Translations under genes and position numbers: made by a program
Assembly: GCA_951406725.2 (NCBI GenBank)
Contig: OX597814.1
Location: 115,754,001 to 115,818,000, forward strand
Direction: 5' to 3'
DNA from: Octopus vulgaris
Lineage: Eukaryota
Length of the DNA: 64,000 nucleotides
Shown here: positions 3,001 through 62,926 of the stretch, piece by piece
Layout: each line of letters begins with the position of its first letter
Position numbering within the stretch: position 1 is the stretch's first letter
Notes under the pieces: generated by a model
The model's database searches: none
Told to the model about the DNA's origin: nothing
The model's input: the letters and a program-made list of their open reading frames with translations, nothing else

Positions 3001-3379
3001 CATTCCCCACAATTTGAAAGGGGGGACTAGAGCAATATGCTATCAAGTGTTTTGCACAAAAACACAATGTGTTGCCCAATCAGGAAATTGAACCCATGAT
3101 CTAACAATCGTGAGTGCAACAGCTTAACCAGTAGGCCACAACTGTATGGGGAATGTTGGTGATTTTTTTTCCCTCTTTCTTCTGGACTTTCCTCTGTCTC
3201 CTGTTTCTAAAGAAGAGCTTTGCTTGAAACATAAAACAACCACTCTTTCTTTCCTTCTCTGAGCGTCTCATTAATACTTTGCATGTACTACGTCCTCAAG
3301 CTGTTGCTTTTTTTCTCCATTTTTTTAATTAATTGTTATACACACACATAAATATATATTACACAGATCTATGTATGAC

Positions 3380-3797
3380 AACATACGGATGTGAGACCTG
3401 GACACTAAAGAAAGCTGACCAGAAGAGAATTAATGCATTCGAGCTTTGGTGTTGGAGAAGACTTTTACGGATTCCATGGACAGCGAGGCTCAATAATGGA
3501 GAAGTTCTTAACCAGATCAAGCCGAAACTGTCGCTAGAAGCTAGGATCACCAAGCACAGATTGACATATTTTGGTCATATTATGCAGAGAAAATCCCTGG
3601 AGAAGGACATCATGTTTGGAATGGTCAGTAGCAAGAGAGGAAGAGGCCAATCAAGAACCCGCTGGCTTAACAACATTAAGAGTGACATGGGAATGGCCAT
3701 AGCCAATCTGAAAGAAGCGACCCGGGATAGAACTGGCTGGAGGACACTGATCCATCGAGTAACCGAGAGTCGACTTCGACTGAGCAGATAGATAGAT
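3380..3797 (+). mobile_element. RTE-clade LINE, 5'-truncated 3' end
   Basis: TYGCETWT...RINAFELWCWRRLLRIPWTAR...LTYFGHIM...RGRG..RTRW, followed by an (AGAT)n tail. Confidence 0.9.
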
Positions 3798-4536
3798 GTA
3801 TGACAGCATGTGTTCCACTTGTTTTGACTTGTACATGCTGATTGTAAACAAAAGTCACCATTCATACAGTGCTGTCTGTCTGCAACCTTCCACAAAAGCA
3901 TGACCAGCTGTTCATTGTTCAACAGACAAGGGGAAACATTACCTTGCATAGAAAGCGACAAGGGTTGGCAACGTGAAGAGCATTCAGCAATAGAAAACTG
4001 TACATTAACATCTCACTGGACCCTTCAAGCATGGAAAAGCAGATGTTAGATCAGTAATGATGAGTTATAGAAATATTTCGTTGTTATGTCCATTTTTAAG
4101 GCAGAAAACTGGCAGAATTTTTAGCATGCCAGGCAAAATGTTTCATGGAATTTCATCCGATTTTGAGTTCTAAAGTCAAATTATGCTGAGGTTGACTTTG
4201 CCTTTCAAGGTCAACGAAATAGGCACCAGTCAAGCACTGGGGTCAACTGGCCTCCTCACCCAACATTTCAGCCCTTGAGCCTATAGTATAAAGGATTATC
4301 TCACTTTGTTGATTCAAGAAACAATTTCATAGAAATGCTGTAGTTTACGAAATCATTAAGCTTTATAATGTTTTTTATTTTATTTGTTTCAGTTATTGGA
4401 TTATAGTCATGTTAGGGCATCATCTTGAAGAGTTTTTAGTCAATTGTATCAACCCTAATATGTATTTTAAAACATGATACTAATTTTAGTAACCAATGTT
4501 TACCACACTGTTAAGTCATACTTAGAGCCATTTCAA

Positions 4537-4770
4537 GGGCGGCAAGCTGGCAGAAACGTTAGCACGCCGAGCGAAATGTTTAGCAGTATTTTGTCTGTTT
4601 TTACATTCTGAGTTCAAATTCCGCCGAGGTCGACTTTGCCTTTCATCCTTTCAGGGTTGATAAATTAAGTACCAGTTGCACACTGGGGTCGATGTAATCG
4701 ACTTAATCCCTTTGTCTGTCCTTGTTTGGCCCCCTTCTATGTTCAGCCCCTTGTGGGCAATAAATAAATA
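4537..4770 (+). mobile_element. tRNA-derived SINE with Meta-like core (most abundant family); e.g. also 13315-13684(-), 22848-23250, 24643-24862(-), 33305-33538, 52608-52842(-), 55172-55578(-), 59995-60409
   Basis: Head GGCGG..AGCTGGCAGAA...GAGTTCAAATTCC and core GCCTTTCATCCTTTCGGGGTCGATAAA..AAGTACCAG. 14-bp TSD ACTTAGAGCCATTT here. Confidence 0.85.
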
Positions 4771-5628
4771 ACTTAGAGCCATTTTAGTAGTATTATGGGT
4801 CCCCAAGCTAATCAATGCACAGGGTCCAACAATATTTATTTATTTAACAACATAGCATACATAGATCAGAACTGGGTCACCAGACCCACAAGGTGCTGAA
4901 ATGACTGGCTAAGTGTGCCCATGCCCCTGACATTGGTCATATGACATAAACACTGTTTTTTCAAACTGTTTCAATGCAAAGCCAGACAGACACACACCAA
5001 CACACATACAACAGGCTTCTGCATAGTTTCCACTTACCATTTTCACTCATAAGCTCTAAATCCAACTGAGGCTATGATAGAAGACACTTGTCTAAGATGT
5101 CACACAGTAGGACAGAACCCAAGACCATATGTTTGTGAAGCAAACTTCTTAACCACGCAACCATGTAATGAAGCTCTCAACACATTTAGCTGAAGGGATC
5201 ACCCTGAAGACCATCTTTTATAGTGTACTCAGATTAGAAAACCCCACAGGGAAAGCTGAACTCAGCACTGCAAGTTTACAAACTACTTGTCATTTCCAGC
5301 ACTACCACTGCTTGGAATGGTAAATTGTTCCTAACCTGTGGTACTTATGTTTAGCCAGATGGACTGAGTCGATTGAACATTAGATGTTTTAGCCATGATC
5401 ACAGCTTCATATTACCAATGAAAATAATAAGCTCTCTAGGCATTATTTCAGCCAAGTTCTTTATTAGAAGACTAAAAGAGAAAAAAACCCCACTTGTATC
5501 TGTTTGACAACAAAAGGAATATTGGTAAGTGGAAACACCTTACAGGACAAGCAGACAACAGGAGAAATCTTCAGAGGAAGAACTCTCACCAACCAAGTGT
5601 TTCAGCCTGTTAGTTCCAGACACTTTAA

Positions 5629-6080
5629 CCCTTTTGTTACCAACCCGGTTGAAGCCAACTCTGGCCCTGAGTACAAATGTCTTATTTTCATAAGTTTTCA
5701 ATTAAAATCTTCCACCAAACCTTCCTAACACTAGCTAAATGATAACTAAGTTATTTTACTAAATTCTTTGTTATATTTAAAGTAATTGAAAGAAACACAG
5801 AGCATCTCAAAATAAATACAGTAACGAAAGGGTTAGAATATATAATAGAGAAGCAATTCTTAATCCTTTTGTTACCAACCCAGTTGAAACCGGCTCTGGC
5901 TCTGAGTACAAAAGTCTTGCTTCCATAAGTTTTGAATTAAAATCTACCAAACCTTAGTCACAGTTTATGTTCCTAACACAAGCTTGATGATAACTAAGTT
6001 ATTTTACTAAATTCTTTGTTATATTTAAAGTAACTGAAAGAAACACAGAGCATCTCAAAATAAATACAGCAACGAAAGGG
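5629..6080 (+). mobile_element. Two adjacent piggyBac-type MITEs (5629-5832, 5864-6080); same family at 21868-22088, 26170-26386, 31079-31298
   Basis: TTAA-CCCTTT(T/C)GTTAC...GTAACGAAAGGG-TTAA ends with a shared ~210-bp body. Confidence 0.8.
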
Positions 6081-9000
6081 TTAAGGGAGCAGGACCCATT
6101 CTGATCATGATCCTTAAGTGTTTTCAAAATGCCACTTTTAGCAGGGATTGAACCTGGAACTTCAGGATGATCTTATTTCCCTGAGCTGTGGTGTATATCA
6201 TTTGGTCATGAAGACCACCAAGAGAACTTGCACTGTAGATTGTTTTCAAGCTGGATTGTTGTAGTATAAGGTTAACATTTTGCAAGGTATTCTGCAGGGA
6301 TGATAGAAATATTTGAAAGACAACTCTATTAACATAATTTATGTGAAGGTTTAAATCAGATCAAACCATTTACAGAAGAAAAAAAAATTAATAAATAAAT
6401 AAAAAGTATTGAGAAATAATTGTTCAAAAATTCAAATAAGTTAGATCAGTGATTCCCAAAGTGGATAGTACTTCCCCTTTCGGGGTCGGTGGAAAATTCA
6501 GAGGGGCATTAAAGAAAATTGAGATGATAATGGGGTGGCCAAAATGGTGTGATAGATGTAAAACAATTAAAAATATTAATTGGTAAATTAGGTTTTTACT
6601 TGTATTTGTGAAATACAGCTGTTTTGAATTTGCTGTGGAACGTGGTTTATATTTTGGTTGGGGAGGGTTAGGGGGCACTAGGAATGTGGTCCAGGTGCCA
6701 AGGGGGTGGCAGCCTGAAAACGTTTGGGAACTATGGAGTTAGATGATACCTAATTGAAGGTAACACCAACATAATATAATAGATTATTAGAGATATTCCT
6801 TTCAGGATCTAGCTTTCATGTATTAGGAACAGATTACGGTATAAAGAGCCCTATAAATGAACGAATGAATAAGGGCCCCTGTTACAACCACCATTCTTTG
6901 CTACACACTGCAGTCTTGTGCTGTTAACCAAGAGCCCTATTCTGGTCCTAATATCCTAACTTGTTCCAAATACTTTATATGGAATCATGAGCAAAACAAA
7001 TATGAAGGGACTCGCTTTAAATACAGACAACAAATGACTGCTTCGGGTATTCAGCTCACAGTTGTAAGGTCATGGGTTCAATTCCAGCTGATGCATTGTG
7101 TTCTTAAACAAGACACTTTATTTCACATTGCACCAGTCCACTCAGCTGGTAAAAATGAGTAGTACCTGTATTTCAAAGGGCCAGCCTTGTCACACTATGT
7201 CACACTGAATCCCCTTGAGAACAATATTAAGGGTATGCATGTCTGTGGAGTCCTCAGTCACTTGCACATTAATTTCATGAGCAGGTTGTTAATTTGATTG
7301 GATCAATTAAGAACATTCATTGTCATAACTCACAGAGTGCCAGTTAATTGTTGTAATCAGCAGGAATGGTTTATAATTAATTAATGAGTCTTTTGTTAGC
7401 TTTCAGAGCTAAATACAACATAAATGTTCACATGAATTAAATATCTACAGGGGACTAGCATCCTTACCAGGAAGAATAGTGTTTCTAATCTGCCTAGTAC
7501 TAGCTCAGTTGGGTCCCATTATATTGTGACATCCATCTAAAAATGATGGAAATGAAGAAAATAATTCTAAAAATAAAATAACAAAACACTAAAATTATAA
7601 TGACTGCAGTGAGCAATCAGGCTATTTCATAATGACTATATCAGTTTCTTAATTAACCATGTCATAATTAAATCATTCAATCAAAAAATGCAAAAAGTGC
7701 AATGTGATATTAAATTTATAATTGTGGATACAAGAGTTTTGGAGGTCTTCCCTTCATCCACAGCACTTTTAATTTGTGATTTCTTTGGGTTAAAGAGAGA
7801 GAGAGAGAGATGTGGTCAACTGAATGTAACCTCAGCATGTAAGTGGTATTTAGCTGGATGGAAATAAAATGACAAGAAATGTGTAGAAAGGGATGTAAAA
7901 TGTACTCTAGCCTGATGTAACGAAACATGTCCCAAGTTGTCTTCCATACCTGAGAGAAAAATAATTCTTTCTTTCATCGCTAAATTAATTTTGCTGAGGA
8001 GGTCAGAATAAAAGTGAAACAAGTTCAGAGTTAACTCTTATGTACAAAAGAAACGTCTGAGATATTCTTTCTTCACTACAACAGTTAGTTTTCATAATGT
8101 CATATGCATATATTAGTTAGTTAATAATCTTTAATTAAAACCCTACCAGACCATTCCATCATCAATGGTCCATAACAGTCCAACAATTACTGGTATCTTT
8201 GCACACATTTCTTGACACAACATTGCAAAATTTAAAAATAAAAAAGACAATTTCATGTTTTGTTTGTGGCATTCTTCTCTTACCTTTTTTTTTTTAATTT
8301 CAAAATCTTTTTTCCTTTATTTTTTAAAATTCTTCTTTAATTTGTCCAGTGGTTCAAATTGATATTTTCATTAAAAAAAGATTTTTTTTGTTTTTTGGAA
8401 TGATTAAACAAAATGCTCTATATAATAATAATAATAATGATAATAATAATAATAAATACTACAGTTGATTCAAAAAATATAACAACAAAAAATAATTTTA
8501 TAAAAGCAGGTATAAATTAAAAATATAACAAATAACAGAAAAAAAGCTCAAATGAATAAACAAAAAAGAATTGAAATGTTAAATGAGCCTTCAATTTGGT
8601 CTATGCTTCTAAAGAACAAGAATGAACTCGTGTTGGAATACTGAGAAGTCAAAGAATGGAACTTAGTGTAAATTTATAAATATTCTTTCTAAATTTGGCA
8701 CAAGGCCAGTCGTTTTGGAGGGGAGGGAGAAGTCAATTACATTGACCCCAGTACACGACTGGTACTTGTTTTATCAACCCTTGAAAGGATGAAAGGCTAA
8801 GTTGACCTCGGCGACATTTGAACTCAGAATGTCAAGGGCTGATAAAAATGTCCAGCATGGTAATGATTCTGCCAGCCCGCCACTTTATGTTAGTTTATGA
8901 ATATAAACAAGGAATTGCATCAAGAATGCGATAAGGGATACGGTAAGAGATAATTAACCCCGTCTTTTGAGATGAAATACTTTATATTTAATCTTCACAT

Positions 9001-9121
9001 TTACACTTCATTTTAATCAGACTAATCTCCAATTCATCATCAGATATCCTATTCTTGAATAACTAGATTAAAAGATCAAAACTAGGAACTTTTATTTCTA
9101 AGCTAATATTTGCAATGCTGT

Positions 9122-9205
9122 GTACTATATATATATATATACACACATTATAATATATATACATATATAGATACATAATATATATACATATATAGATACA
9201 TTATA

Positions 9206-9246
<41 letters not shown>

Positions 9247-10156
9247 TAGATACATTATAATATATATATATATATATACTATATGTACTATATATATATA
9301 TACATATATAGATACATTATAATATATATATATATATATATATACTATATGTACTATATATATATATATACATATATAGATACATTATAATATATATATA
9401 TACTATATGTACTATATATATATATACATATATAGATACATTATAATATATCATCATCATCATCGTTTAACGTCCGTTTTCCATGCTAGCATGGGTTGGA
9501 CGGTTCAACCGGGGTCTGGGAAGCCAGAAGGCTGCACCAGGCTCCAGTACTATGTACTATATATATATATACATATATAGATACATTATAATATATATAT
9601 ATATATGTATATATATATACTATATGTACTATATATATATATATATATACTATATGTACTATATATATATAATAATATATATATACATTATATATATATA
9701 TATATATATATATACTATATGTACTATATATATATATATATAGATACATTATATATATATATATATATATATATATACTATATGTACTATATATATATAT
9801 ATACTATATGTACTATATATATATATATATACTATATGTACTATATATATATAATAATATATATATACATTATAATATATATATATATGTATATATATAC
9901 TATATGTACTATATATATATATATATATAGATACATTATAATATATATATATATGTATATATATATACTATATGTACTATATATATATATATACTATATG
10001 TACTATATATATATAATAATATATATATACATTATAATATATATATATATGTATATATATATACTCTATGTACTATATATATATAATAATATATATATAC
10101 ATTATAATTAATAAATATATATATATATATACATTATAATATATATATATATATAT
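9122..10156. repeat. Compound (TA)n satellite with an embedded SINE-tail fragment (9451-9548)
   Basis: TACTATATG / GATACATTATAA units separated by (TA)n. Confidence 0.95.
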
Positions 10157-10248
10157 ACAGGAATAAGACACTGCATGGTACCAGGCTAGATTTGAACCAG
10201 GAAGCTTTATTTCTAAGCCAATGGTTTTAAAGCTTTATACTATTTATA

Positions 10249-10467
10249 CAGGGTTGGCCAAAAGTCACCTGACAGAAATCAAAACCATTTGATTCCAAGG
10301 TTTATTTATGTTTAACAACTGAATGAATTTAACAAAAGCGTCTAAATATGAAACATCATGAAAAAGTCCTTCTTGAATGACACATTTTACCATTCCAGTC
10401 AATACAGAATTACAGATAGTATTTATGGAATTTTGATTTACTGTCGGGTGACTTTTGACCGTCTCTG
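10249..10467. mobile_element. Tc1/mariner-type MITE
   Basis: TA TSD and TIR CAGGGTTGGCCAAAAGTCACC..ACAG. Confidence 0.75.
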
Positions 10468-12359
10468 TATATATCCAAGAATAAGACATTTGATTACTGG
10501 AAATGAAACTGATCTAAACACAGTGCAGATATAAATAGTGGTTCCAAAATTTGGCACAAGGCCAGCAACTCCAGGAGAGGGGCTAAGCTGAATATATCAA
10601 CCCCAGAACTCAACTGGAACTTATTTTATCAACCTCAAAAGGATGAAAGGCAAAGTCAACCTTAGTGGAATTTAAATTCAGAATGTAAAATACATTTTGC
10701 CTGGCATGCTAACCATTCTGCCAGCTTGCTGCCTTGATGTGTAGATATAAATATTAATAAATGCTTCATCTCTAAGGATGAAGTTAATCGCTAGAAAAAT
10801 CAACTATTATAATTAACAATAATTATAATTAATAGCAACCCATCTGAGATATTTAAATATTCAATGATAAGAGATGATTTAATTAATTATTTCTTTTACT
10901 TTATTTATTTTTTAATTATTTCATTTTATAATAATAATAATGCTATCTTTTTAGTTAAAATTCCTGGCTACTGGGAAACGGTTTTCCAGCAATATTTTTT
11001 ATGATTACAGTGCCCAGTATGACCACAGCCAACTGGTCAAGAAAAGGATTAATTTATCCAAAGTAAGAACATCATGAAAGATTCTCTAAAAGACAGTTCT
11101 GGAATGAAAGAGAGCCATAAATATAGCCAAATTCCAATACTCAAAAGTGCCATAAAATATATTTATATTTCCTCATGTTAGTTAAATTTTTAAAATAGCA
11201 GCAGATTTGTCATAAAATAAATTTAGTCTGCTACACGTCGAAATTTCTTTTTTTATTTTAAAAAATATTTTAAAATAATTTCTGAAATTAAGTTTAATCA
11301 TTTCGTTTTAAAAAATGTGAAACTGTGAATTCTGAGGAAAACTAGTGATGGTCTGCCGTCAATAAGCGGTTAAAGTACAAAATGTTTACAACATGGAATA
11401 AATTAATTTGTCGTGGGAAAGAGATAAAGTTGAATGATTTGAACAGGACCTTTTCCAAAATAATTTGAAAAGAACTGTATGGTGTGGTGGTGGTGTTGTG
11501 GGCTAATATGTTCGGAGAAATCTTTTACTTTCAAGAAAATGTAACAACAACAGATCATTTTGTATTAAATGACTTCGGTGTGAAATGGAAAGGAATGAAT
11601 GTTTCAACTTCACTGACAACAAGAGTGAGAAATTGCTCTGTTCAGTATCAAGCATTAACCATTAACCCTTTAAGTCAGCCATATCTGGCCCAAATATTCT
11701 ACCTGTTTTATGTTCATTGTACGGTAGGTGTGCGAGGCCAGATCCAGCCTCTCACACCTACCCTATGATGTCATTCTAAAAATAAACTCACATCATTGAA
11801 ATCTCGAAGCTACGAGACGGTGCGTGATTAATCGAAAACAATGTGAATAAACAAGCATCGCATTTGAGTGAGTGACCTGAATGCTAAAGAATTAAAAGTT
11901 TCAAATCTGGTTTCAATCAGTAAAAGATTTAACCAATAACAAACCTTGATTTATAGACAGAAAAAAGGGTACACTTATTAATGCTAGCCAAATTGTAGTC
12001 ATGGGACTGAGCAGAAGGATTTTACAGTAGCTGTCTTAGCCTTCTCTGATCAGAAGAAAACTGACAGTGTCCTACCTTATTAGTAAGACACTCATCAGCT
12101 GTATAATAAATATAGTTTTCAAATAAATATACATCAAAGCATGTGATATAAAAATGCTCAAAAAAGGAAAAAAACACAAGAAAAAAATCACTCTCACTGC
12201 CACCACCACCACCAAACACAAAACAAACAAACTGAATTATTTATAAGACAATCTGTTTGTTTGTGTTTGACTTTTTTTGTGCAGTTTTCTTGTTTTCTCT
12301 TTAACAAAAGAACAAAATGATTGCAGAAATATATATAACAAAATGACTGCAGTTAATCT

Positions 12360-25676: not shown

Positions 25677-26046
25677 CGTGAACAGTTGCTGGAACTCCAA
25701 GCAAGCTTTCCCTCATGCTCTCTCCAACTGTCCATTCATTTGTATCAGTATCAAAGATCTCAACTGAATCAAGAGGCTTTTGAGTTTCAGAAACACCACC
25801 AAGCACAATGATTTTCTTTCCAACAGCGACCGCGGCAGCACCTGCTCTTTTAGTTGGAATGCCAGGGAGGGCTGTCCATGTATTGGCTTTCAAATCATAC
25901 ATCTCAAAGTTAGCTAGTGGCTTGCCACGCATATCACAACCTCCAATGACGTATAACTTGTCATTAAGAATAACAGGAGTTGCAAATACACGTTTTGATG
26001 GCATCGGGAGATGGATTTCCCATTGTCTTGGTTCTGTAGCTGCCAT
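25677..26046 (-). CDS. KLHDC8: Kelch domain-containing protein 8 homolog, coding exon 1 (370 nt)
   Basis: ATG at 26046. Kelch repeats (LYVIGGCD..., IIVLGG...W) closely resemble the vertebrate KLHDC8A/B N-terminus as I recall it. GTAAGA donor at 25676 (phase 1). A ttgcag acceptor at 26072-26073 implies an upstream non-coding exon. Confidence 0.93.
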
Positions 26047-52269: not shown

Positions 52270-52975
52270 GTGTAAGCCAGCATGCTCGCATTGTTACCAC
52301 AGGCAATGGCGAGGCTAAGTCTTTGGAGCAGTCAAGTGCCCTCACGGGTATCACCAGAGACACCTCGGTAAAGTGATCCACCAACGATGGCAAGAACATT
52401 TGTTGTTAGCGGCCCAGCCCCACCAAACATTTCAAACGCCGCAGGCTGGAAGAAATTGTTCACCGACAAGTCTCGATACTTAAGGATTTTATTCTGTTTG
52501 GCTACAGAAGCAGTGACCCCGCCACCGCCATTTACCGCAGCATTCAGAATGTGAGAAGGACCAAAAGAATCACAGACTGTGGCGTCCCAGATGAGACACC
52601 TACCTCTTATTTCTTTACTGCCCACATGGGGCTGCACACAGAGGGGACAAACAAGAGCAGACAAAGGGATTAAGTCGATTACATCGACCCCAGTGCGTAA
52701 CTGGTACTTATTTAATCGACCCCGAAAGGATGAAAGGCAAAGTCGACCTCAGCGGAATTTGAACTCAGAACGTAGCGCCAGATGAAATACTTCTAAGCAT
52801 TTCGCCCCGGCATGCTAACGTTTCTGCCAGCTTGCCGCCTTTTAGGCACCTACCTCTTACTCTAGGAAAAGAGTAACACCTTCGTTTCTGGATAATTCCG
52901 CCGGCTCCAGAACTAAGGGGATATTAACCCAAGCCAGGGCCCGCTTAATGATCAGGTTCATAAGTAGTTCATAGG
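52270..52975 (-). mobile_element. CRE-like non-LTR retrotransposon restriction-like endonuclease fragment, interrupted by a SINE
   Basis: NLIIKRALAWVNIPLVLEP...GRCLIWDATVCDSFGPSH...KILKY...FQPAAFEMFG...GDTREG..LLQRLSLAIACGN. Confidence 0.65.
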
Positions 52976-53504
52976 TAAGCGGATTAAATGACTTCCAATT
53001 GGAGAGCATGTAATTATATGATAATGGAGCGTAGTCTGTGAGGGAATTTTGTATGTGATTATGCAGTTGAGGGAAACATCGATCATGAAACAGTTACTTC
53101 GACATGTGACAATCGCTCATTGGTTTTCTTGTTGAATATTTACTTCGAGTATTTATTTATACAAACGTATTCACACAAGAAAGAAGCATTTAAGACTTGC
53201 ATTGAAAACTAAAGCAATATTTGGAAGTTTAAAAAAAAAATGGCATTTATATGGAACTTGATGGCTTCTTTCTTAATCTTTCAATCAGGAGGGAAATAAA
53301 TTCCCATGAGCCTTTGCAGGGCCTTTGAGATTTGTGAGCAGGAGGGAGGAAGCTATCTTCAAACCGGAGTGGACTCTGATAAATGAATCCTTGGTGCCTG
53401 GTGATGGTATTAAGCCGGGTGGAAGGTCTCCCACTTGTGATACAAATGTAAAATAGATATGAACAATGCAAAGTGTCGTTTAGAGCTGGGTTTGTTATTT
53501 CCTA

Positions 53505-53563
53505 GAATAGAATAGTCTATAGTTTCCTTTATGACGTCACACTTGTAATAAAAGTCTATAAAA
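53505..53563 (+). promoter_or_regulatory. Promoter of copy A: palindromic CRE plus TATA box
   Basis: TGACGTCA at 53532-53539 and TATAAAA at 53557-53563. The upstream block AATAGAATAGTCTATA is shared with copy B. Confidence 0.65.
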
Positions 53564-53660
53564 GCGGCATAATTTCTTCCAGCGCTTACATTTGCCGTGT
53601 TCCATTAACCTCTTCGAGACCTATTTTTCTACATAGTGGCTTAAAACCTCAGATAGAAAG

Positions 53661-54209
53661 ATGACCAGTTTAAAAGGCTCTTCTCGTAGATGTCCATACA
53701 GAGTATGCAAAGAAGAGAGAAAAGCAAAGAAAAGGAATCAGAGATACCCCAAACTGAAATACTCTTCAAAACATAATACGGGGAGCAATCGGGTATTAAG
53801 CAATAGCAACCGGCATCCAAAGTGTCTGAGTAGAAGTCAATCGGGAAATTCTTACAGGGCTCTTTTCAGAACGAAGAAAAGAACCAAGAGTATGAGAGAC
53901 TCCAGGGGACATAATTGTACAAGAGTTCAAAGTACTTCGAATCGGAAGTTAAAACAGAGAAAGCCGAAACGTAGGACAGTTCCCAAGCACTCAACTTCAT
54001 CGGAAGTTCAAGCGGTAACCTCTCAAGAAATTTCAGAACAGGCAAATAATGACAAAATGTTATTGTCGCATGTTTCAGAAAGCAGTTCTTCGAAAGGAAC
54101 AGAAACAGATTGCAATGCTCAGGTGGATGAACCTGTATCGAATGCTTTGGATATGGACAGATATGATCAGACGATTACATCACAAAATACAATTCTCGGT
54201 AGGGTTTAA
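53661..54209 (+). CDS. Intronless 182-aa protein, basic (R/K/S) N-half and acidic C-half; candidate sperm/spermatid nuclear basic protein, copy A
   Basis: Open frame in unique sequence, colinear with the paralog at 61898-62437. CRE and TATA upstream, AATAAA at 54222-54227. Function is inferred from composition only. Confidence 0.7.
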   Translation: MTSLKGSSRRCPYRVCKEERKAKKRNQRYPKLKYSSKHNTGSNRVLSNSNRHPKCLSRSQSGNSYRALFRTKKRTKSMRDSRGHNCTRVQSTSNRKLKQRKPKRRTVPKHSTSSEVQAVTSQEISEQANNDKMLLSHVSESSSSKGTETDCNAQVDEPVSNALDMDRYDQTITSQNTILGRV

Positions 54210-54545
54210 TTATTTGTATTAAATAAAAATATATATTTAAATTTCTCTTGTCTTTATTCTCCACCGAGAACTTATATTTCTTGTAAAACTATACATGTAC
54301 ATGCATATTCAAATTAAAATATTGTCACATGTCTACCTGTATACATCAGAGTTTTAAGTAATAAAATTTTTAGAACCTCAATGGGTGTTTTGTGTTGTAA
54401 TATACATCGTTAGCAGATGTTAAAATACCAAGTATTCAACTTTAATTGACTGTAGAACGGTAAATTTTGCGTTATCCTCCCCAGGAAGGAAAAGAGATGG
54501 GGTTTCAACAATGGAGGCTACTTTCGAAGTTCAGTTTATGGAATT

Positions 54546-55036
54546 GTGTGTGTGTGTGTTTTGTGTGTGTGTTGTGTTTTGCGCGCGCGCGCGTGTGTGT
54601 GTTTTGCGTGTGTGTGTGTGTTGTGTGTTTTTTTTTTGTGTGTTGTATTTTGTTGTGTGTGTGTTGTAGTGCGTGTGTGTGTATGTTGTATTTTGTGTTG
54701 TTTTGTATTTTGTGTTGTTTTGCGTGTGTGTGTGTGCGTGTGTTTTGTGTTGTGTGTGTGCGTGTGTTTTGTGTTGTGTGTGTGCGTGTGTTTTGTGTTG
54801 TGTGTGTGTGTTTTGTGAGTTTTGTGTTGTGTGTGTTTTGTGAGTTTTGCGTGTGTGTGTGTTTTGCTTGTGTGTGTGTGTGTGTGTGTTTCGTGTGTTG
54901 TGTGTTTTGCGTGTGTGTGTGTATGTGTGTGCCGCTCGGTGTAATCTTTGAATCTGCCGGACTCCCCAAGCCTCCGTGTGTGTGTTTTGTGTGTGTGTGT
55001 TTTGTGTTGTATTTTGTGTGTGTGTGTGTGTGTGTG
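54546..55036. repeat. Degenerate (GT)n/GTTTT low-complexity tract
   Basis: Direct inspection. Confidence 0.95.
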
Positions 55037-55944
55037 CCGCTCGGTGTAACCCTTGAATCTGCCGGGTTCCCTCAAGCCTATCTCAAGATCATAGAGCAGA
55101 CCCAAAAGATGCCCTCCCTGTAAAAAGCGTTCGCCCGGGGCAGACCGCTACCCCCATATAACTGCGCTATTATTGCCCACAAGGGGCTAAACATAGAGAG
55201 GACAAACAAGGACAGACAAAGGGATTAAGTCGATTACATCGACCCCAGTGCGAAACTGGTACTTTATTTATCGACCCCAAAAGGATGAATGGCAAAGTCA
55301 ACCTCGGCGGAATTTGAACTCAAAACTAACGACAGACGAAATACCTATTTCTTTACTACCTACAAGGGGCTAAACACAGAGGGGACAAACAAGGACAGAC
55401 AAGCGGATTATAGGTGAGACATCGACTCCAGTGCGTAACTGGTACTTAATTTAATGACCCCGAAAGGATGAAAGGCAAAGTCGACCACGGCGAAATTTGA
55501 ACTCAGAACGTAACGGCAGACGAAATACCGTTAAGAATTTCGCCCGGCGTGCGAACAATTCTGCCTGCTCGCCGCCTTGAGCGGGCATTTTGGACGTGGA
55601 GGTCATCGATTTATAAGGAGGTATAAAACCGAATCCTGGAGCACACGGTGTCGCTTTTAAGGAATGTAAAATGTTCCGTCAATATATGCAACAGTAGTGC
55701 AATCTGAAAGGAGGCTATTGATCCAAAACATGCAGTTTCGATATGAAATTCGCATTATATATAAAGGTAAACTTTGCTATTATCGAAGACATTACTTTCA
55801 CCAAATTTCAGCCACAGCAAGTGTCCACTGATGGGCGACATAAGAAGAGGGTGTCTATGCCTGTTCGTGACAATGTAACCTAAAACTAGTGGTACAAACA
55901 TGTTAAAATTCGATTGAGAGTGACGGTTAGGTTTTACACGTAAG

Positions 55945-56360
55945 CAGGCGTGCGCGTGTGCATTCAGCAAACACACGCAGGCATGCGTGCGTGCATGCAT
56001 TCTTCAGCACCAACACGCGCAACACGTGCACGGGTGTACGCTCGGGCCGCGCACTCTCCTGCGCCAACACGCGCGCGGGCATGCGCTCGCGCCGCGCACT
56101 CTCCTGCGCCAACACGCGCAACACGTGTGCGGGCGTACGCTCGCGTCGTGCACTCTACGGCACCAACACACGCAACACGTGCGCGCGCACCGTGCACCTT
56201 TCGGCGCCAACACACACAACACGTGCGCGCTCCGTGCATTGTTCGACACCAACGTACGCAAAACGTACGCGGGCGTACGCTCGCGTCGCGCACTCTACAG
56301 CACCAACAAACGCGGGTGTGCGCTCGCGCCGCGCACTCTCCTGCACCAACGTACGCAAAA
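55945..56360. repeat. CpG-rich degenerate minisatellite
   Basis: Recurrent GCACTCTCCTGCGCCAACACGCGC / CGTACGCTCGCG units. Confidence 0.85.
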
Positions 56361-56419
56361 CGGACGAAGGTTGCAAATCGACTCAACCAAAAGTAGCGAA
56401 ACGTCCCGCCTAACAACAA

Positions 56420-58337
56420 CACTGATGGACATCGAAAAAAGACTGCAACAATCCTATGTGAGGGAGAAAGCAGACAAAGAAGCCTGGGTTATAAAAAACA
56501 TTAAGTCAAAGCCAAAGGCCTTCTTTCATTACGCGAAAGAAACAACCTCAGTACACTACAAGATAAGACCCCTCCTCCAAAAGGATGGCTCCCTCACAGA
56601 CAGTCCAACTAAGATCAGTGAGATACTGAATGACCAGTTCAAAAGTGTCTTTACCACCCAGTTGGAACACAGACAAGTGAACGAACCAGTGGACTTCTTT
56701 GCCGCCTCACCTATAACCAGCGAGGCAGTTACAATGGAATACATTGACATTAGCGAAGAAGATATACTACTAGCCATAGATGAAGTGGACACAAACTCAA
56801 CTGCTGGTCCTGGTGGTTTCCCAGCAATCCTCCTCAAATCGTGTAAGCATGCCCTGGCAAAACCCCTCAAGATTCTCTTCCAGAGCTTTCTTGCAAATGG
56901 CAAACTGCTAAGCAAGCTGAAGGAGGGAATAATATGCCCAATACATAAAGAGGGAAGTAGAGCAGATGCCAAAAACTATAGGCCTATCTCTCTGACTTGA
57001 AACATCAGCAAAGCCATGGAACGGATAGTCAGAGGGAAACTAATCGCATTCTTTGAAAAAAATAACCAGCATGATTTTCGACCAGGTAGGAACTGCCTGA
57101 CCCAGCTCTTACAACATTACAACAAATCAAATGTGGATGTAATATACCTTGATTTTACAAAAGCATAGCTGGAAAACTTGGAGTGTGTTTACATGACTTC
57201 CTGAAAGATAGGAGTCAGGCAGTAGTAGCTAATGGAGCCACCTCTTTGAACACACAAATAGTGAGCGGTGTTCCATAGGGCACTGTCTTGTGATCACTGC
57301 TCTTTATAGTGGCCCTCTCAGATATGCCCTCAAATGCCCGAATAGCCACCTTGGCAAGCTATGCAGATGATACGAAAGTCTCGCAGAAAATACAGAACCC
57401 CAGCGATGTTGCACATCTGCAGCAGGAGTTGGACTCAATTTACAGATGGGCTGAGGATAATAATATGCAGTTTAATACTGAAAAATTACAGGCCCAGCGC
57501 TACCAGCATCCAAAACTGAATATGAAACTTACAGGGTACACCGGTCCACAGGGAATTTCAATCCCAGAGCCTAAGTCAGTGAGGGACCTGGGTATCGACA
57601 TGAGGTATGATACCTATTTCCAAATGCACATTACCAGGATGGTGACAAAGTGCAGACGACTGGCTGGATGGATCCTAAGAACATTCAGAACCAGAGATAA
57701 GGAAACCATGATGGTCCTCTGGCGGACTTTCGTCCTCAACCGCCTGGATTATTGCTCACAGCTATGGTCACCCACCAGTATGAAATTAACAGCGGACCTT
57801 GAAGCAATCCAGAGAAGATTCACAAAGAAGATCGTCTCTTTGCAACAGCTCAGCTACTGGGAAAGGTTGAAACAGCTAAGACTCTACTCCCTGGAGAGAA
57901 GACGGGAGAGGTATGCAGTAATATATGTCTGGAAGATCCTGGAAGGAATTGTGTCATATTTTGGCACTGAAAGCTACACCAATACCAGAACGGGACGACA
58001 ATGCATAGTGCCAAAGATCCCAGCAATGCCATCACGCTTCAGGACCAGTTACTGCAACAGCCTGGGTTTCAAGAGCCCACAGCTTTTTAATATTCTCCCA
58101 AAGAGTCTGAGGAACTTGCACAAAGTAGATGTAGGGATTTTAAATCAAAGCTGGACCTCTTCATGTCGAGAGTCCCAGATGAACCTACCTCATGGCAAGA
58201 GGTGCAAATGAGGGTAGCTATATCAAACTCCATTCTTCACCAAGTGCCACATATTAGAGGAGGCTCTTGGTAATAACATTGTAGCAAAACGGTGGTGCAT
58301 CAGCATGGCCGCAGCTCTGAGCTGAGACTAAAAAAGA
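56420..58337 (+). mobile_element. CR1/L2-group LINE, 5'-truncated, disrupted RT
   Basis: NYRPISLT, DVIYLDF, YADD, LDYCSQLWSP and LYSLERRRERY motifs. Stop at 56998-57000 and internal deletions. Structured 3' tail at 58291-58337. Confidence 0.9.
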
Positions 58338-61099
58338 ATATATATAATAACTTTGATACGTTTCGGCCAGTACGGGCCCAGGCCATGTCTATATATATAC
58401 ATGTATGTATATGTACTCGTACAAAATGGATCCTCCGCCGTTTTCGTCGATGAGCATTCAACTGTTTGAGGCAGTCATAGAGAGACAGACAAATTGTTTT
58501 TCGCTGGGAACGGCCGAAAAAGTGTTTGGTGTCAGCTCACGACTACAGCAACACCTAAAACAATAATCGGTAGTATGGTGTATGTTACTAGCGAAACATT
58601 GAGCATGTAACCACTGAAGAAAGAGAGGAAGGACTACACCAGCACTTGGCTAGTACCAATCTTCATTTTACCACGTAAAATGGGGATGCCTTGCTGAAAT
58701 ACACAACACACCGGGATCTTTTCGGTTTGAACGGCAGTTTTTTCTAGCGATGTCATATGAAATTGTCACCCATAATTATGACCCTAGTATCGATCTATTA
58801 CATTTCAATCTGTTTTTGGTTTAGGGTTAGAGTTAGGGTTAGGGGGTATCATTTTTTCTTCAGAAATGTAAATAAACCCAATCTGTTTCTTAAACGCGGC
58901 ACATATTCATACGGCGCAGAATGTTTTTGCCTCAATAGACGTCATTGATTGGTTGAAATTGCAGAAATTGAAGAAAAAAACAACAAATATCTTACAAACC
59001 ATAGAATTTTCTCAATAAAGCCAAGAGAAAAAGATGTTTTATAAACACATTCTACCAGTATAGGAAGTTTTTTATAGTATAGGAAGTTTTTTAGTTACCT
59101 AGAAATTGTTAAAAACTGCCGTTCAAACCGAAAAGATCCCCAATCTTGGTACCAATGAAGATTGGTACTAGCCAAGTGCTGGTGTAGTCCTTCCTCTCTT
59201 TCTTCAGTGGTTACATGCTCAATGTTTCGCTAGTAACATACACCATACTACCGATTATTGTTTTAAGTGTTGCTGTAGTCGTGAGCTGACACCAAACACT
59301 TTTTCGGCCGTTCCCAGCGAAAAAATTTGTCTGTCGCTCTAATGACTGCCTCAAACAGTTGAATGCTCATCGACGAAAACGGCGGAGGATCCATTCTGTA
59401 CGAGTACATATACATACATGTATATATATAGACATGGCCTGGGCCCGTACTGGCCGAAACATATCAAAGTTATTATATATATTCTTCAATTTCAACCAAT
59501 CAATGACGTCTATTGAGGTGAAAACATTCTGTGCCGTATGAATATGTCCCTCGTTTAAGAAACAGATTGGGTTTATTTACATTTGTAGAAACAGATTGGG
59601 TTTATTTACATTTGTGAAGAAAAAAAGAAACCCTTCCCCCCACCCCTAACCCTAACCCTAACCAAGCCTAACTCTAACCCTAACCCTGAAACAGATTGAA
59701 ATGCAATAGATCGATACTAGGGTCATAATTATGGTGACAATTTCATATGACACCGCTAGAAAAAACTGCCGTTCAAACCGAAAAGATCCATTTGATGTCT
59801 AAAAAAAATCTTTTTATATTTTTATATTTTATATTTTTAGAATGAAATATATATCGTATATAATTAAAAGATACAGAAATATTTTATTCTCAAACGCATG
59901 ACAATGCCAATACAGTAGCATGAACAGGATAAACTACCCATTTATTGCAGAACAATTCGTTACTGGGCAGTTTAGCTTAAAGGTAAAGCACTAAGGCGGC
60001 GAGCTGGCAGAAACGTTAGCACGCCGGGCGTAATGCTTAGTGGTTCGTCTGCCGTTACGTTGTAGGTTCAAATTCCGCCGAGGTCGACTTTGCCTTAAAT
60101 CCTTTCGGGGTCGATAAATTAAGTACCAGTTACGCACTGGGGTCGATGTAATTGACTTTAATACCTATGTCTGTCCTTGTTTGTCCCCTCTGTGTTTAGC
60201 CCCTTGTGGGTAATAAAGAAATAGGTATTTCCTCTGCCGTTACGTTCTGAGTTCAAATTCCGCCGAAGTTGACTTTGCCTTTCATCCTTTCGGAGTCGAT
60301 TAAATAAGTACCAGTTACGCACTGGGGTCGATATAATCGACTTAATTCGTTTGTCTGTCCTTGTTTGTTCTGTCTGTGTTTAGCGCCTTGTGGGTAGTAA
60401 AGAAATAGGTAAAGCACTAACGCGTAATCACATGGATGTGAGTTCGAGTCTCATGGCTGGTCGGTAACGAATTTTTCTGCAATATATGGATAGGTTTATC
60501 CTGTTCATGCTATTGTATTAACATTATCATGCGTTTGAGAATAAATTATTTCTGAATCTTTCAATACATCTCAACGCTTCTATTTGATTACTTTCATCGT
60601 AAGTTGAATATATAATTAAATATTTTTGTAATTAATATGAATTTTATAAGAAAAATGTTAGACGTATAACCAATTTATTGCAAATAAAATTTAGAAAAAT
60701 CTAAGGTTGAGAAGGGACAGAATATGTCCATCAATACATTGAGAGTGGTGATATAGGATTTGTTAGAACTAGGATTCAGTCGATGCTCAGGAGTCTTGAA
60801 CAAGCTACAACATCTTCCGTGGGCGCTATGTGAACCCCATGAGCAATACAGACCTCGGTTGAGAACCATTTGTTGAGAGGATTATGCAAAGTGTGATAGC
60901 TGGAAGGAGTGAGGATTGTACTAGGATGGTACTCATTCTAGCAGAGCAGACTGGAATAACATGAAATGAGATGCCTCACTCAGAAACACAGCGTTTTGAC
61001 TAGCCGAGAATTGAACCCACGACCTTATGGTCGTCAGCGGAACACCCCCCAAACGGAAGCCTCGACTAAAATATTCAATTAAGCAGAAGCTAAAACAAT

Positions 61100-61516
61100 G
61101 GATCTTTTCGGCTTGACCGGGAGTTTTAAAAAATAATTTCCACGTAACTAAACACTTTAAAACTTCCTATACTGGTAGAATGTGTTTATAAAACATCTTT
61201 TTCTCTTGGCTTTATTGAGAAAATTCTATAGTTTGTAAGATATTTGTTGTTTTTTTTCTTCAATTTCTGCAATTTCAACCGATCAATGATGTCTATTGAG
61301 GTGAAAACATTCTATGCCGTATGAATATGTCCCTCGTCTAAGAAACAGATTAGGTTTATTTACATTTGTGAAGAAAAAAAGATACCCTTCCCCCCACCCC
61401 TAACCCTAACTCTAAAACAGATTGAAATGCAATAGATCGATTCTAGGGTCATAATTATGGGTGGCAATTTCATATGACACCGCTAGAAAAAACTGCCGTT
61501 CAAACCGAAAAGATCC
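61100..61516 (+). mobile_element. Merlin-like MITE
   Basis: ~28-bp TIR starting GG. 8-bp TSD AAAACAAT at 61092-61099 and 61517-61524. Confidence 0.85.
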
Positions 61517-61743
61517 AAAACAATATCGAGGAAGTTTTGATATGGTACTTCGTGTGTACAGATATAAATATAAACAGGATAAGATTCGTTCAGAAATGCA
61601 ATTGACCTTTTTGGTCAAGCTCTATCAAAGTTTGTCTTTTCTTATCATCTGTATGGGGCACCAGACATACTGGGTAGATTGAATAAACTATACTCTCCCC
61701 AACAATCTAGGGACTTATGTATATTATTATAATTATATTAGGG

Positions 61744-61790
61744 AATAGAATAGTCTATAATCTCTTTATGACATCACACTGACGTCACAG
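61744..61790 (+). promoter_or_regulatory. Promoter of copy B: decayed CRE plus adjacent intact CRE
   Basis: TGACATCA at 61769-61776 (homologous position to the copy A site) followed by TGACGTCA at 61780-61787. Confidence 0.6.
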
Positions 61791-61897
61791 AGGTAGATAT
61801 TGAACGTCATTCTTTCAAGCTTTTTCATTCACCGTGTTTCAGATTTAACTTCGTGACCAATTTTTCTATACAGCAGATTAAAACCTCAGATAGAAAG

Positions 61898-62437
61898 ATG
61901 GTTACCTTAAGCAGCAGTTCTCGCAGATATCCATACAGAGTATACAAAGGACACAGAAAAGTAAAGAGATGTTCGAAACACTCAAAACCGAGAAGTTCTT
62001 CCAAATATTTGTACGATAACCGAGGATCACAGAGCAAAAGTAACCGGTATCGCAAGAGTCTGAGCAGAAGTTATTCGAAAAATTCTTATAGGCCTCTTTC
62101 CGGGACGAAGAAAACTAAAAGAGATTCTAGGAGACATAGATTTCGGGGTAAAGGAACTTCAAATCGAAGGACGAGGCAGAGAGTCAAGAGGCGTAGGCGA
62201 ACTCGCAATCATACAGGCTCTTTGACGAAACAAGCTGAGATGCCTCAAGATTGTTCAGAACAGGAGAATGCTGATACCACGGAATTAAAATCGAATACTC
62301 CAGTAAATGATTCTACAAACGATGGGGAAACGGTTCGTAGTGTCCAGACGGATGAAAATATGCCAAATGCGTTGGCAATGGACAGTAAAGACCAAGGGGC
62401 AAAAACACAAAATGCGTCTGTCGGTACGATTGAATAA
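61898..62437 (+). CDS. Intronless 179-aa Arg/Ser/Lys-rich protein with acidic C-half, copy B
   Basis: ATG at 61898 follows the same leader as copy A (TTAAAACCTCAGATAGAAAG-ATG). SSRRYPYRV matches SSRRCPYRV, and LSRSYSKNSYR matches LSRSQSGNSYR. AATAAA at 62456-62461. Confidence 0.72.
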   Translation: MVTLSSSSRRYPYRVYKGHRKVKRCSKHSKPRSSSKYLYDNRGSQSKSNRYRKSLSRSYSKNSYRPLSGTKKTKRDSRRHRFRGKGTSNRRTRQRVKRRRRTRNHTGSLTKQAEMPQDCSEQENADTTELKSNTPVNDSTNDGETVRSVQTDENMPNALAMDSKDQGAKTQNASVGTIE

Positions 62438-62508
62438 TGATTTGAATTTTAAAAAAATAAAGAAATGAAAATATTAATTTTAGTCTTATTCTCAAATATA
62501 AATCTTTT

Positions 62509-62926
62509 GGATCTTTTCGGTTTGAACGGCAGTTTTTTCTAGCGGTTTCATATGAAATTGTCACCCATAATTATGATCCTAGTATCAATCTATTGCATTT
62601 CAATCTGTTTTAGAGTCAGGGTTAGGGGTGGGGGGAAGGGTATCTTTTTTTCTTCTCAAATGTAAATAAACCCAATCTGTTTCTTAAACGAGGGACATAT
62701 TCATACGGCACAGAATGTTTTCACCTCAATAGACGTCGTTGATTGGTTAAAATTGCAGAAATTGAAGAAAAAAAAACAATAAATATCTTACAAACTATAA
62801 AATTTTCTCAATAAAGCCAAGAGAAAAAGATGTTTTATAAACACATTCTACCAGTATAGGAAGTTTAAAAGTGTTTAGTTACGTGGAAATTATTTTAAAA
62901 AACTGCCGGTCAAACCGAAAAGATCC
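62509..62926 (-). mobile_element. Merlin-like MITE, inverted relative to the 61100 copy; other copies 58714-59139, partial 59482-59789, 47807-48038
   Basis: Same TIR and body. Flanks are TAAATCTTTT / TAAACCTTTT. Confidence 0.85.

Follow-up and report, generated by a model that had tools for sequence, protein, structure and literature searches.

An octopod orphan family of basic/acidic disordered proteins, represented by two tandem intronless genes in Octopus vulgaris: possible spermatid nuclear proteins

Two intronless genes on the forward strand of a 64-kb stretch of Octopus vulgaris DNA (the window, by which we mean the whole stretch analysed) belong to an orphan family of disordered proteins that join a basic N-terminal block to an acidic C-terminal tail. 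Gene A (53661-54209) encodes 182 aa (20.8 kDa) and gene B (61898-62437) encodes 179 aa (20.6 kDa); the distance from A to B is 8,237 nt, and the two same-strand frames, lengths and ~8.2-kb spacing given by an earlier sequence-only reading are correct. The orphan family itself is well supported, while its function is a plausible guess. Our best reading, to which we give a little less than an even chance, is that A and B are an octopod-specific, tandem-duplicated intronless pair coding for spermatid nuclear basic proteins that act like transition or protamine-like proteins. From gene anatomy alone, expression in the testis is likely.

A and B are real genes, as follows from their open frames, in-frame indels, dN/dS and a charge pattern kept beyond drift. 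The two proteins can be aligned colinearly over their entire length, with 79 of 183 positions identical (43%, E 6e-25), while the DNA is about 63% alike. Five gaps open inside the coding alignment (3, 9, 3, 3 and 3 nt) and all are in frame. It had been claimed that the copies are colinear and that both frames stay open despite heavy divergence, and this was borne out: neutral simulations, 3000 for each of two distances, never (0 of 3000) kept the frames open. The dN/dS (omega) between the paralogues was 0.61 (bootstrap 0.39-0.94). Comparing B with a contig of run X4 gave an omega of 0.97 from 5 synonymous and 18 nonsynonymous changes, these 23 coding changes being taken from 25 differing letters (one in the 5' UTR, one unlisted); for A, 9 of 9 changes were used. 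No positive selection was detected in binomial tests against neutrality (p 0.41 for A, 1.0 for B and 0.66 pooled); a post hoc subset had an omega of 1.92 (2 synonymous, 14 nonsynonymous). The earlier description of duplicated, fast-evolving, intronless genes that belong to no known family and carry a CRE in their promoters is upheld.

Selection acts on charge rather than on sequence, and amino-acid change is otherwise near-neutral. By charge composition, the basic part spans residues 1-110 of A (53661-53990) and 1-105 of B (61898-62212), and the acidic part residues 111-182 of A and 106-179 of B. Arginine and lysine make up 33% (A) and 37% (B) of the N-terminal part, with net charges of +33 and +37, and aspartate and glutamate 17% and 19% of the C-terminal part, with net charges of -8 and -9; the computed charges agree with the R/K-rich first ~110 aa and acidic last ~70 aa reported before. 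All seven members, at pairwise identities of 29-97%, keep a basic block of +31 to +37 (32-37% R+K) and a tail of -8 or -9, whereas none of eight settings of neutral simulation without stops kept both charges in more than 1 of 1000 runs. In a hydropathy scan of four of the seven members, the best 11-residue window of the first 35 aa scored below 0 every time, giving no sign of a signal peptide, and a secreted cationic peptide precursor with an anionic pro-piece was rejected on this ground. The AlphaFold2 model (pLDDT 50, pTM 0.11) was disordered and too poor for a fold search.

A database search found the family only in octopods, namely Octopus and Argonauta. A is 97% identical to O. bimaculoides P0003 and 51% to Argonauta P0004, and B is 90% identical to O. 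bimaculoides P0006 and 78% to P0007. The family's own database entries, A0A0L8GAK6 and A0A0L8GBG6 from O. bimaculoides and GAB1598102.1 from Argonauta hians, are annotated only as uncharacterised or hypothetical, and no literature naming them was found. That the proteins belong to no known family was confirmed: no remote or longer relative was found among 1.84 billion representatives, the Pfam matches all fell below threshold (E values: Transformer 2.6, Dsh_C 0.31, EsV_1_7_cys 0.42), and a PDB sequence search gave none. None of the seven members matched a linker-histone Pfam model, even at E up to 10, and the ESM Atlas, searched with B whole or with residues 1-106, returned no feature match and only structure rows with TM below 0.5. 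Rfam had no match within the window. The family tree is midpoint-rooted with long branches, so the duplication is not datable from it.

Upstream of both genes, a conserved block (53505-53544 in A, 61743-61787 in B) is 90% identical over 39 aligned nt; the coding halves reach 61-67%, and the DNA upstream of the block 41%. In A the block holds a perfect CRE, TGACGTCA, at 53532-53539 (-129 from the ATG). The site aligned with it in B (61769-61776, also -129) carries a decayed copy, TGACATCA, and a perfect TGACGTCA is found 11 nt downstream (61780-61787, -118). The conserved upstream block and the CREs proposed earlier therefore stand, but B's perfect CRE is not at A's aligned position; by motif, a CRE is kept or replaced in both promoters. 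The window contains two occurrences of TGACGTCA, at 53532 and 61780, both in these promoters; as two per window were seen in 14 of 100 shuffles, the count itself is not rare, whereas the placement is. A contig of organism C showed 0 differences from B at 61738-61789 among those listed. In passages of PMC10454534, TGACGTCA is bound by CREM in mammals and CREM tracks TNP/PRM expression, but CRE is also described there as a common element used by somatic CREB. A role of the CRE in spermatids is documented for mammals, and none was found for molluscs among the matches listed in a literature search.

Directly before the ATG, A (53641-53660) and B (61878-61897) share, as previously noticed, the same 20-nt leader, and leader plus ATG show no difference (53641-53663 against 61878-61900). 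This leader is a candidate translational control element. The duplication included the promoter. A clear TATA-like box, TATAAAA, occurs in A only (53557-53563), some 30 nt ahead of the most upstream contig start; contigs near A begin at 53588, 53590 and 53599, a weak hint of the start taken from contigs only. Candidate AATAAA polyadenylation signals follow the stop by 12 nt in A (54222-54227) and 18 nt in B (62456-62461), in line with the ~20 nt noted before, although in such AT-rich DNA AATAAA is weak evidence by itself. One contig stops at 54229, next to A's AATAAA, with 10 unmatched letters.

A and B were each covered by one unspliced contig in runs of probable RNA origin. Among the contig rows listed, none showed a joint within A or B, and the splicing into a larger gene that was named earlier as a counter-indication was not seen. 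None of the runs listed as containing the genes is on record as RNA; for the 14 labelled 'RNA?' the RNA nature is a guess, and they carry no tissue labels. Unique flanks had zero depth in X1, X4 and X20, which fits RNA, though contig holes prove nothing. Expression is not ubiquitous, since raw RNA run X21 (12.9 M reads, ~6% of the run) had 0 reads on A or B while run X6, of the same species label, holds both genes; ubiquitous expression, which would have spoken against a testis role, is thereby contradicted. Contig depths, a hint only that cannot rank expression, were 9,209 for B, 4,994 for the contig of A and 41 immediately before B in X6, 10,509 in X17, and 6-63 in X1, X4, X10 and X20. Run X20 had no contig on B and X24 almost no matching words; neither was counted as evidence.

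If A and B are spermatid nuclear proteins, the CRE would drive their transcription in post-meiotic germ cells and the 20-nt leader might delay translation. Clusters of arginine and lysine would bring the proteins into the nucleus. There, during the histone-to-protamine change, DNA would be bound through the charge of the basic block, tuned by serine phosphorylation. The acidic tail would temper DNA binding through partial self-shielding of the block, and LC8 dimerisation through a Q-x-D motif is possible; cleavage of the tail would not be needed. An improbable extension is that octopods invented a sperm chromatin class without H1 ancestry and back to front relative to described protamine precursors, with the DNA-binding block first; the C-terminal tail would shield it, dimerise it through LC8 and be removed or phospho-switched to trigger condensation, and the genes would encode intermediate proteins of octopus spermiogenesis. 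Should A and B be genes for histone-to-protamine intermediates, they would offer a testable case in which such proteins arose independently of H1 and carry an acidic regulator at the C-terminus, as well as a marker of spermiogenesis in the octopus. Should they not be, they still form a clean lineage-specific disordered family that conserves its charge blocks and CRE promoter although its sequence changes almost neutrally.

Protamines are given as 3-10 kDa proteins high in arginine, and protamine-like (PL) proteins as R/K-rich proteins of 6-40 kDa, in the part of PMC11607694 that treats these classes. Across the members, the whole protein is 19.5-20.8 kDa and the basic block 12.0-13.0 kDa, arginine accounts for 8-16% of the whole and 13-26% of the block, and arginines run to 1-4 residues at the longest. 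A P-type protamine was rejected by mass and by arginine; the block, with its 32-37% R+K, agrees with the protamine-like class in composition and is within its 6-40 kDa range. The sequence-only reading had proposed testis-specific DNA-condensing proteins, and in its strict form, a sub-case of our best reading, a protamine precursor whose acidic C-terminal chaperone is cut off. Real, constrained genes with CRE promoters were found, but the proteins are not of protamine type and the cleavable chaperone gained no direct support, and we consider the strict form distinctly improbable. The charge boundary is sharp, at about residue 105-110 in all members displayed, and sperm nuclear proteins are commonly trimmed from precursors, with a 177-aa precursor in Tribolium among the examples in PMC12216123; the precursors described there, however, shed an N-terminal leader, whereas here the basic block is N-terminal and the non-basic part C-terminal, a polarity on which a P-type precursor was rejected. 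The tail could offset only about one quarter of the block's charge, and no family match was found among database proteins of 30-90 aa (protamines under 30 aa fall outside this range). No arginine-cluster protamine ORF was found elsewhere in the window. It is known that homology searches detect sperm nuclear proteins only with difficulty (PMC12216123, in part).

Like mollusc PL proteins, as partly covered in PMC11607694, the family is R/K/S-rich, variable in sequence and of fitting mass, but it lacks the histone H1 winged-helix domain (Pfam, PDB, model), bears a 70-aa acidic C-terminal tail and has a whole-protein R+K of only 22-25%. The closest functional analogy is with TNP1/TNP2 and Drosophila Tpl94D/Mst77F, which are also small, basic and of mixed arginine and lysine; the mammalian transition protein genes are CREM-linked, and the A and B promoters carry a CRE by motif. 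The family differs from them in having no sequence match, zinc fingers, HMG box or H1 similarity, in its acidic tail and in being intronless. Cephalopod protamines (squid, Eledone) come from the same animal group and precursor trimming is described for them, but they are 3-10 kDa, up to 80% arginine (or Cys-rich) and lose N-terminal leaders, differing from the A/B block in arginine, in polarity and in the lack of a 30-90 aa match. Literature searches turned up no gene for an octopus histone-to-protamine intermediate.

A rather unlikely alternative, though one sharing the same gene anatomy and restricted expression, is a testis-expressed non-chromatin protein of the spermatid or sperm cytoskeleton or of RNA granules, whose block would bind microtubule tails or RNA and whose tail would dock LC8. 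Basic/acidic disordered proteins elsewhere act as microtubule- or RNA-binding proteins. The most conserved tail segment of A, E-x5-Q-x-D-E-x3-N-x4-D (54102-54158, residues 148-166), corresponds to 62327-62383 of B (residues 144-162), where R-S-V-Q-T-D forms a predicted LC8-anchor-like motif; Q, D and E of Q-x-D-E are invariant across the seven members, and Q154 of A is predicted to fit an LC8-type anchor. Six of the seven members resemble LC8 (DYNLL) clients in that a disordered tail bears a candidate x-Q-[T/V/I]-D anchor, and [TVIAS]-Q-[TVIC]-[DEP] occurs in these six at one aligned position; unlike in those clients, the motif is single, predicted from sequence and failing in Argonauta. The R at -3 and D at +2 of B, like the D at -4 of A, are preferences of LC8 binders in the sections of PMC6607443 concerned, and LC8 is found in mouse elongating spermatids, in the nucleus first and then in the cytoplasm (PMC10652042, in part). 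Against docking, Argonauta has K at +1, deemed unfavourable in the same sections of PMC6607443, the pattern arises by chance in 6-7% of shuffled tails, and tail conservation extends past +2, which LC8 binding does not explain.

It is rather unlikely that the pair is a cephalopod novelty serving oocytes or a non-gonadal tissue, where it would form an intracellular charge-block condensate or have a structural role, by analogy with lineage-specific genes of the reflectin type. Clustered taxon-restricted gene arrays of coleoids are tied to somatic tissues in the portion of PMC9068888 on such arrays, and low-depth contigs occur in several studies, but neither reflectin nor any other family was matched, and a tiny intronless gene with a CRE and an omega near 1 is more typical of male germ-cell genes (see also PMC6697446). 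A transposon-derived ORF, a pair of pseudogenes or exons belonging to some larger gene are largely refuted and hardly credible, even though MITE-like copies flank B and the spacer between A and B contains SINE-like repeats together with a decayed ORF of reverse-transcriptase type. Dispersed copies of the transposon kind, another earlier concern, left no sign in the window, protein sets or contigs: the window has two copies and O. bimaculoides one A and one B, a copy number that rests on the window, protein sets and run contigs. The family also has no transposase or RT domain match; each gene has a single contig, no longer relative turned up, and the frames did not stay open in the neutral simulations. 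B is flanked by a MITE-like element of ~420 nt with terminal inverted repeats (61100-61516) and by a second, inverted copy (62509-62926), the arms being 95-96% complementary. As these flanking elements are far more alike (95-96%) than A and B (~63%), a composite transposon was rejected as the cause of the duplication.

Two open reading frames on the forward strand, A (53661-54209, 182 aa) and B (61898-62437, 179 aa), can be aligned from end to end (43% identity, E 6e-25), and protein and DNA searches gave no third copy in the window. Since their DNA homology starts upstream, at 53505 and 61743, and ends at about the polyadenylation signals, the duplicated unit includes the promoter; a fresh retrocopy origin was rejected on this ground, and the alignment indicates that A and B arose by tandem duplication at the DNA level. 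Identity is 90% in a promoter block of 39 nt, 75% in the 5' UTR, 67% and 61% in the coding halves and 41% further upstream, and the family tree gives no date for the duplication.

A and B are real genes. All five gaps opening in the coding alignment preserve the frame, and in neutral-substitution simulations at two distances, with 3000 runs each, not one run kept both frames open; nor did any of 20,000 runs of a simpler neutral model. The claim of two colinear same-strand frames, open despite their divergence, was thus confirmed. The sequence-only reading had also proposed a dN/dS comparison of the copies, which gave dN 0.45, dS 0.74 and omega 0.61 (bootstrap 0.39-0.94). Against contigs of the sequencing run X4, all 9 differences in A were used, 3 of them synonymous and 6 nonsynonymous (omega 0.53). 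For B, 23 of 25 were used, 5 of them synonymous and 18 nonsynonymous (omega 0.97). Neither gene departs significantly from neutrality, and positive selection is not supported. As nonsynonymous change in B was about three times that in A in this same comparison (dN 0.047 vs 0.014), the sequences suggest unequal constraint on the two genes since duplication. What stays conserved in the family is charge: the net charge is +31 to +37 in the basic N-terminal block and -8 or -9 in the acidic tail in all seven aligned members, and under each of 8 stop-free simulation settings no more than 1 run in 1000 kept both of them.

The 20-nt leader before the ATG is the same in A and B, as had been noted from the sequence. 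Of the claim of a conserved upstream block with a CRE, the block and the presence of a CRE in both promoters stood, but the perfect CRE of B is not at the site aligned to that of A. TGACGTCA occurs only twice in the window, once per promoter, and because two per window also arose in 14 of 100 shuffles, it is the placement and not the count that matters. In B, TGACATCA stands at the site aligned to A's CRE (-129), with a perfect copy 11 nt downstream, an arrangement that looks like loss of the original site followed by its replacement.

A search for runs carrying A or B listed 20 runs from 9 studies, none of them recorded as RNA or assigned to a tissue, and runs were mapped onto 52800-62800 of the window. 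A is covered by one gap-free contig each in X1 (53599-54198), X4 (53590-54229) and X20 (53588-54204), and B likewise in X1 (61832-62422) and X4 (61838-62428), with zero depth on unique flanks in these three runs. X10 and X17 have a single piece each on B, and X6 has pieces on B and on its paralogue A plus a low-depth upstream piece. The single-piece contigs, with no splice joint within either frame among the joints listed, agree with the genes being intronless. In three studies the contigs on A begin within 11 nt of one another, about 30 nt past TATAAAA, which gives a weak hint, from contigs only, of a candidate transcription start. The X20 contig carries 23 extra letters (53565-53587, before 53588) unmatched to the window; these may be adapter sequence from the library and so mark a 5' end. 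Among 12.9 M raw RNA reads of X21, about 6% of that run, none fell on A or B and the repeats between them were deeply covered, although X6, of the same species label, carries B (23 differences across 509 nt), well inside the 88% threshold; expression is therefore not ubiquitous, and it was ubiquitous somatic expression that the sequence-only reading had named as refuting its proposal. Contig depth, which is no measure of expression, spans 6 to 10,509 across runs, a spread that hints at a single tissue in which levels are very high.

Word-index protein searches returned 2 clusters, then 5, B itself among the latter. The members with a named source are all from octopods: in O. bimaculoides A0A0L8GAK6 (97% identity to A) and A0A0L8GBG6 (90% identity to B), and in Argonauta hians GAB1598102.1 (53% to A, 29% to B). 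P0007 is a B-type protein (78% to B) and P0005 an additional A-type member; database entries are present but without names. Searching 1.84 billion representatives of any length with a profile yielded just three proteins, each already in the alignment, and none of 224 candidates of 30-90 aa scored. Pfam, PDB and ESM Atlas gave no usable match, in keeping with the initial failure to recognise a known family. Topic searches of the literature, with subscription papers mostly outside reach, found no description, and accession matches were unrelated substrings only. AlphaFold2 predicted disorder (pLDDT 50, pTM 0.11) with a single short helix, and hydropathy gave no signal peptide or membrane segment in the four members tested. 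This is a solid orphan family, cheap to test, whose function we infer.

Protamine-like proteins are defined in PMC11607694 as R/K-rich proteins of 6-40 kDa, and CREM has been linked to TNP/PRM in mammals (PMC10454534); PMC6341066 and PMC3710222 served as background only. Since A and B match this definition, carry the promoter CRE, are under selection on charge and are restricted in expression, we propose, at a little short of an even chance, that they are spermatid nuclear basic proteins acting like transition or protamine-like proteins. Transcription would start after meiosis under a CRE-binding factor, and the leader common to both genes may delay translation. The 12-13 kDa basic block (R+K 32-37%) would then reach the nucleus and attach to DNA through its charge, while the tail may shield that block in part. 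Any likeness would lie in the mode of working, as on the features tested A and B are not members of the protamine, H1-derived protamine-like or TNP families. Against this proposal stand the runs, which carry no tissue label, and the CRE, which CREB uses in somatic cells too; arginine occurs in short runs only, the family proteins have no H1 or HMG domain, and there is no protamine-type frame near A or B. The acidic tail as a cleavable chaperone, as first suggested, is improbable, since the precursors described in PMC12216123 are trimmed at the N-terminal side, and just about a quarter of the basic charge is offset by the tail.

The tail has one conserved segment, with five invariant columns among A residues 148-161, and in six of the seven members its Q-x-D fits an LC8 anchor, a candidate that offers a new lead. 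The surroundings in B (R-S-V-Q-T-D) and in A (D at -4, then A-Q-V-D) agree with LC8-binder preferences in PMC6607443, which also gives lysine at +1, found in Argonauta, as unfavourable. When tails are shuffled, 6-7% of them show the pattern. As LC8 in mouse is described in elongating spermatid nuclei and later in the cytoplasm (PMC10652042), the motif fits a cytoskeletal protein docking LC8 as well as a chromatin protein, and we consider the cytoskeletal role possible though doubtful. A cephalopod novelty outside the testis, for which arrays of such genes described in PMC9068888 would speak, appears rather unlikely. That A and B are a transposon, a pseudogene or an exon of a larger gene is largely excluded and very improbable.

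A kelch-repeat gene, presumably KLHDC8-like, has its first coding exon (Pfam Kelch_1) at 25677-26046 on the reverse strand, is directed away from A and could serve as a synteny anchor. An abundant SINE-like repeat has copies at 52615-52790, 55170-55529 and 60039-60411, very deeply covered in the mapped runs. An imperfect GC-rich tandem repeat of 44-54-nt units (55981-56362) directly precedes decayed reverse-transcriptase-like frames with a YADD motif (56425-58211), which we take to be probably a non-LTR retrotransposon; related copies are read-covered in X4 and X21. Gene B is flanked by two inverted copies (61100-61516 and 62509-62926, 95-96% alike) of an element of about 420 nt with terminal inverted repeats, a pair resembling a composite transposon, which was rejected as the cause of the duplication because the flanking elements are too young. 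Further copies lie at 58714-59139 and 59482-59790, and one copy is surrounded by arms of about 320 nt (58334-58667 and 59154-59486) that are 99% complementary, which would be either an inverted duplication of very recent date or a feature of the assembly.
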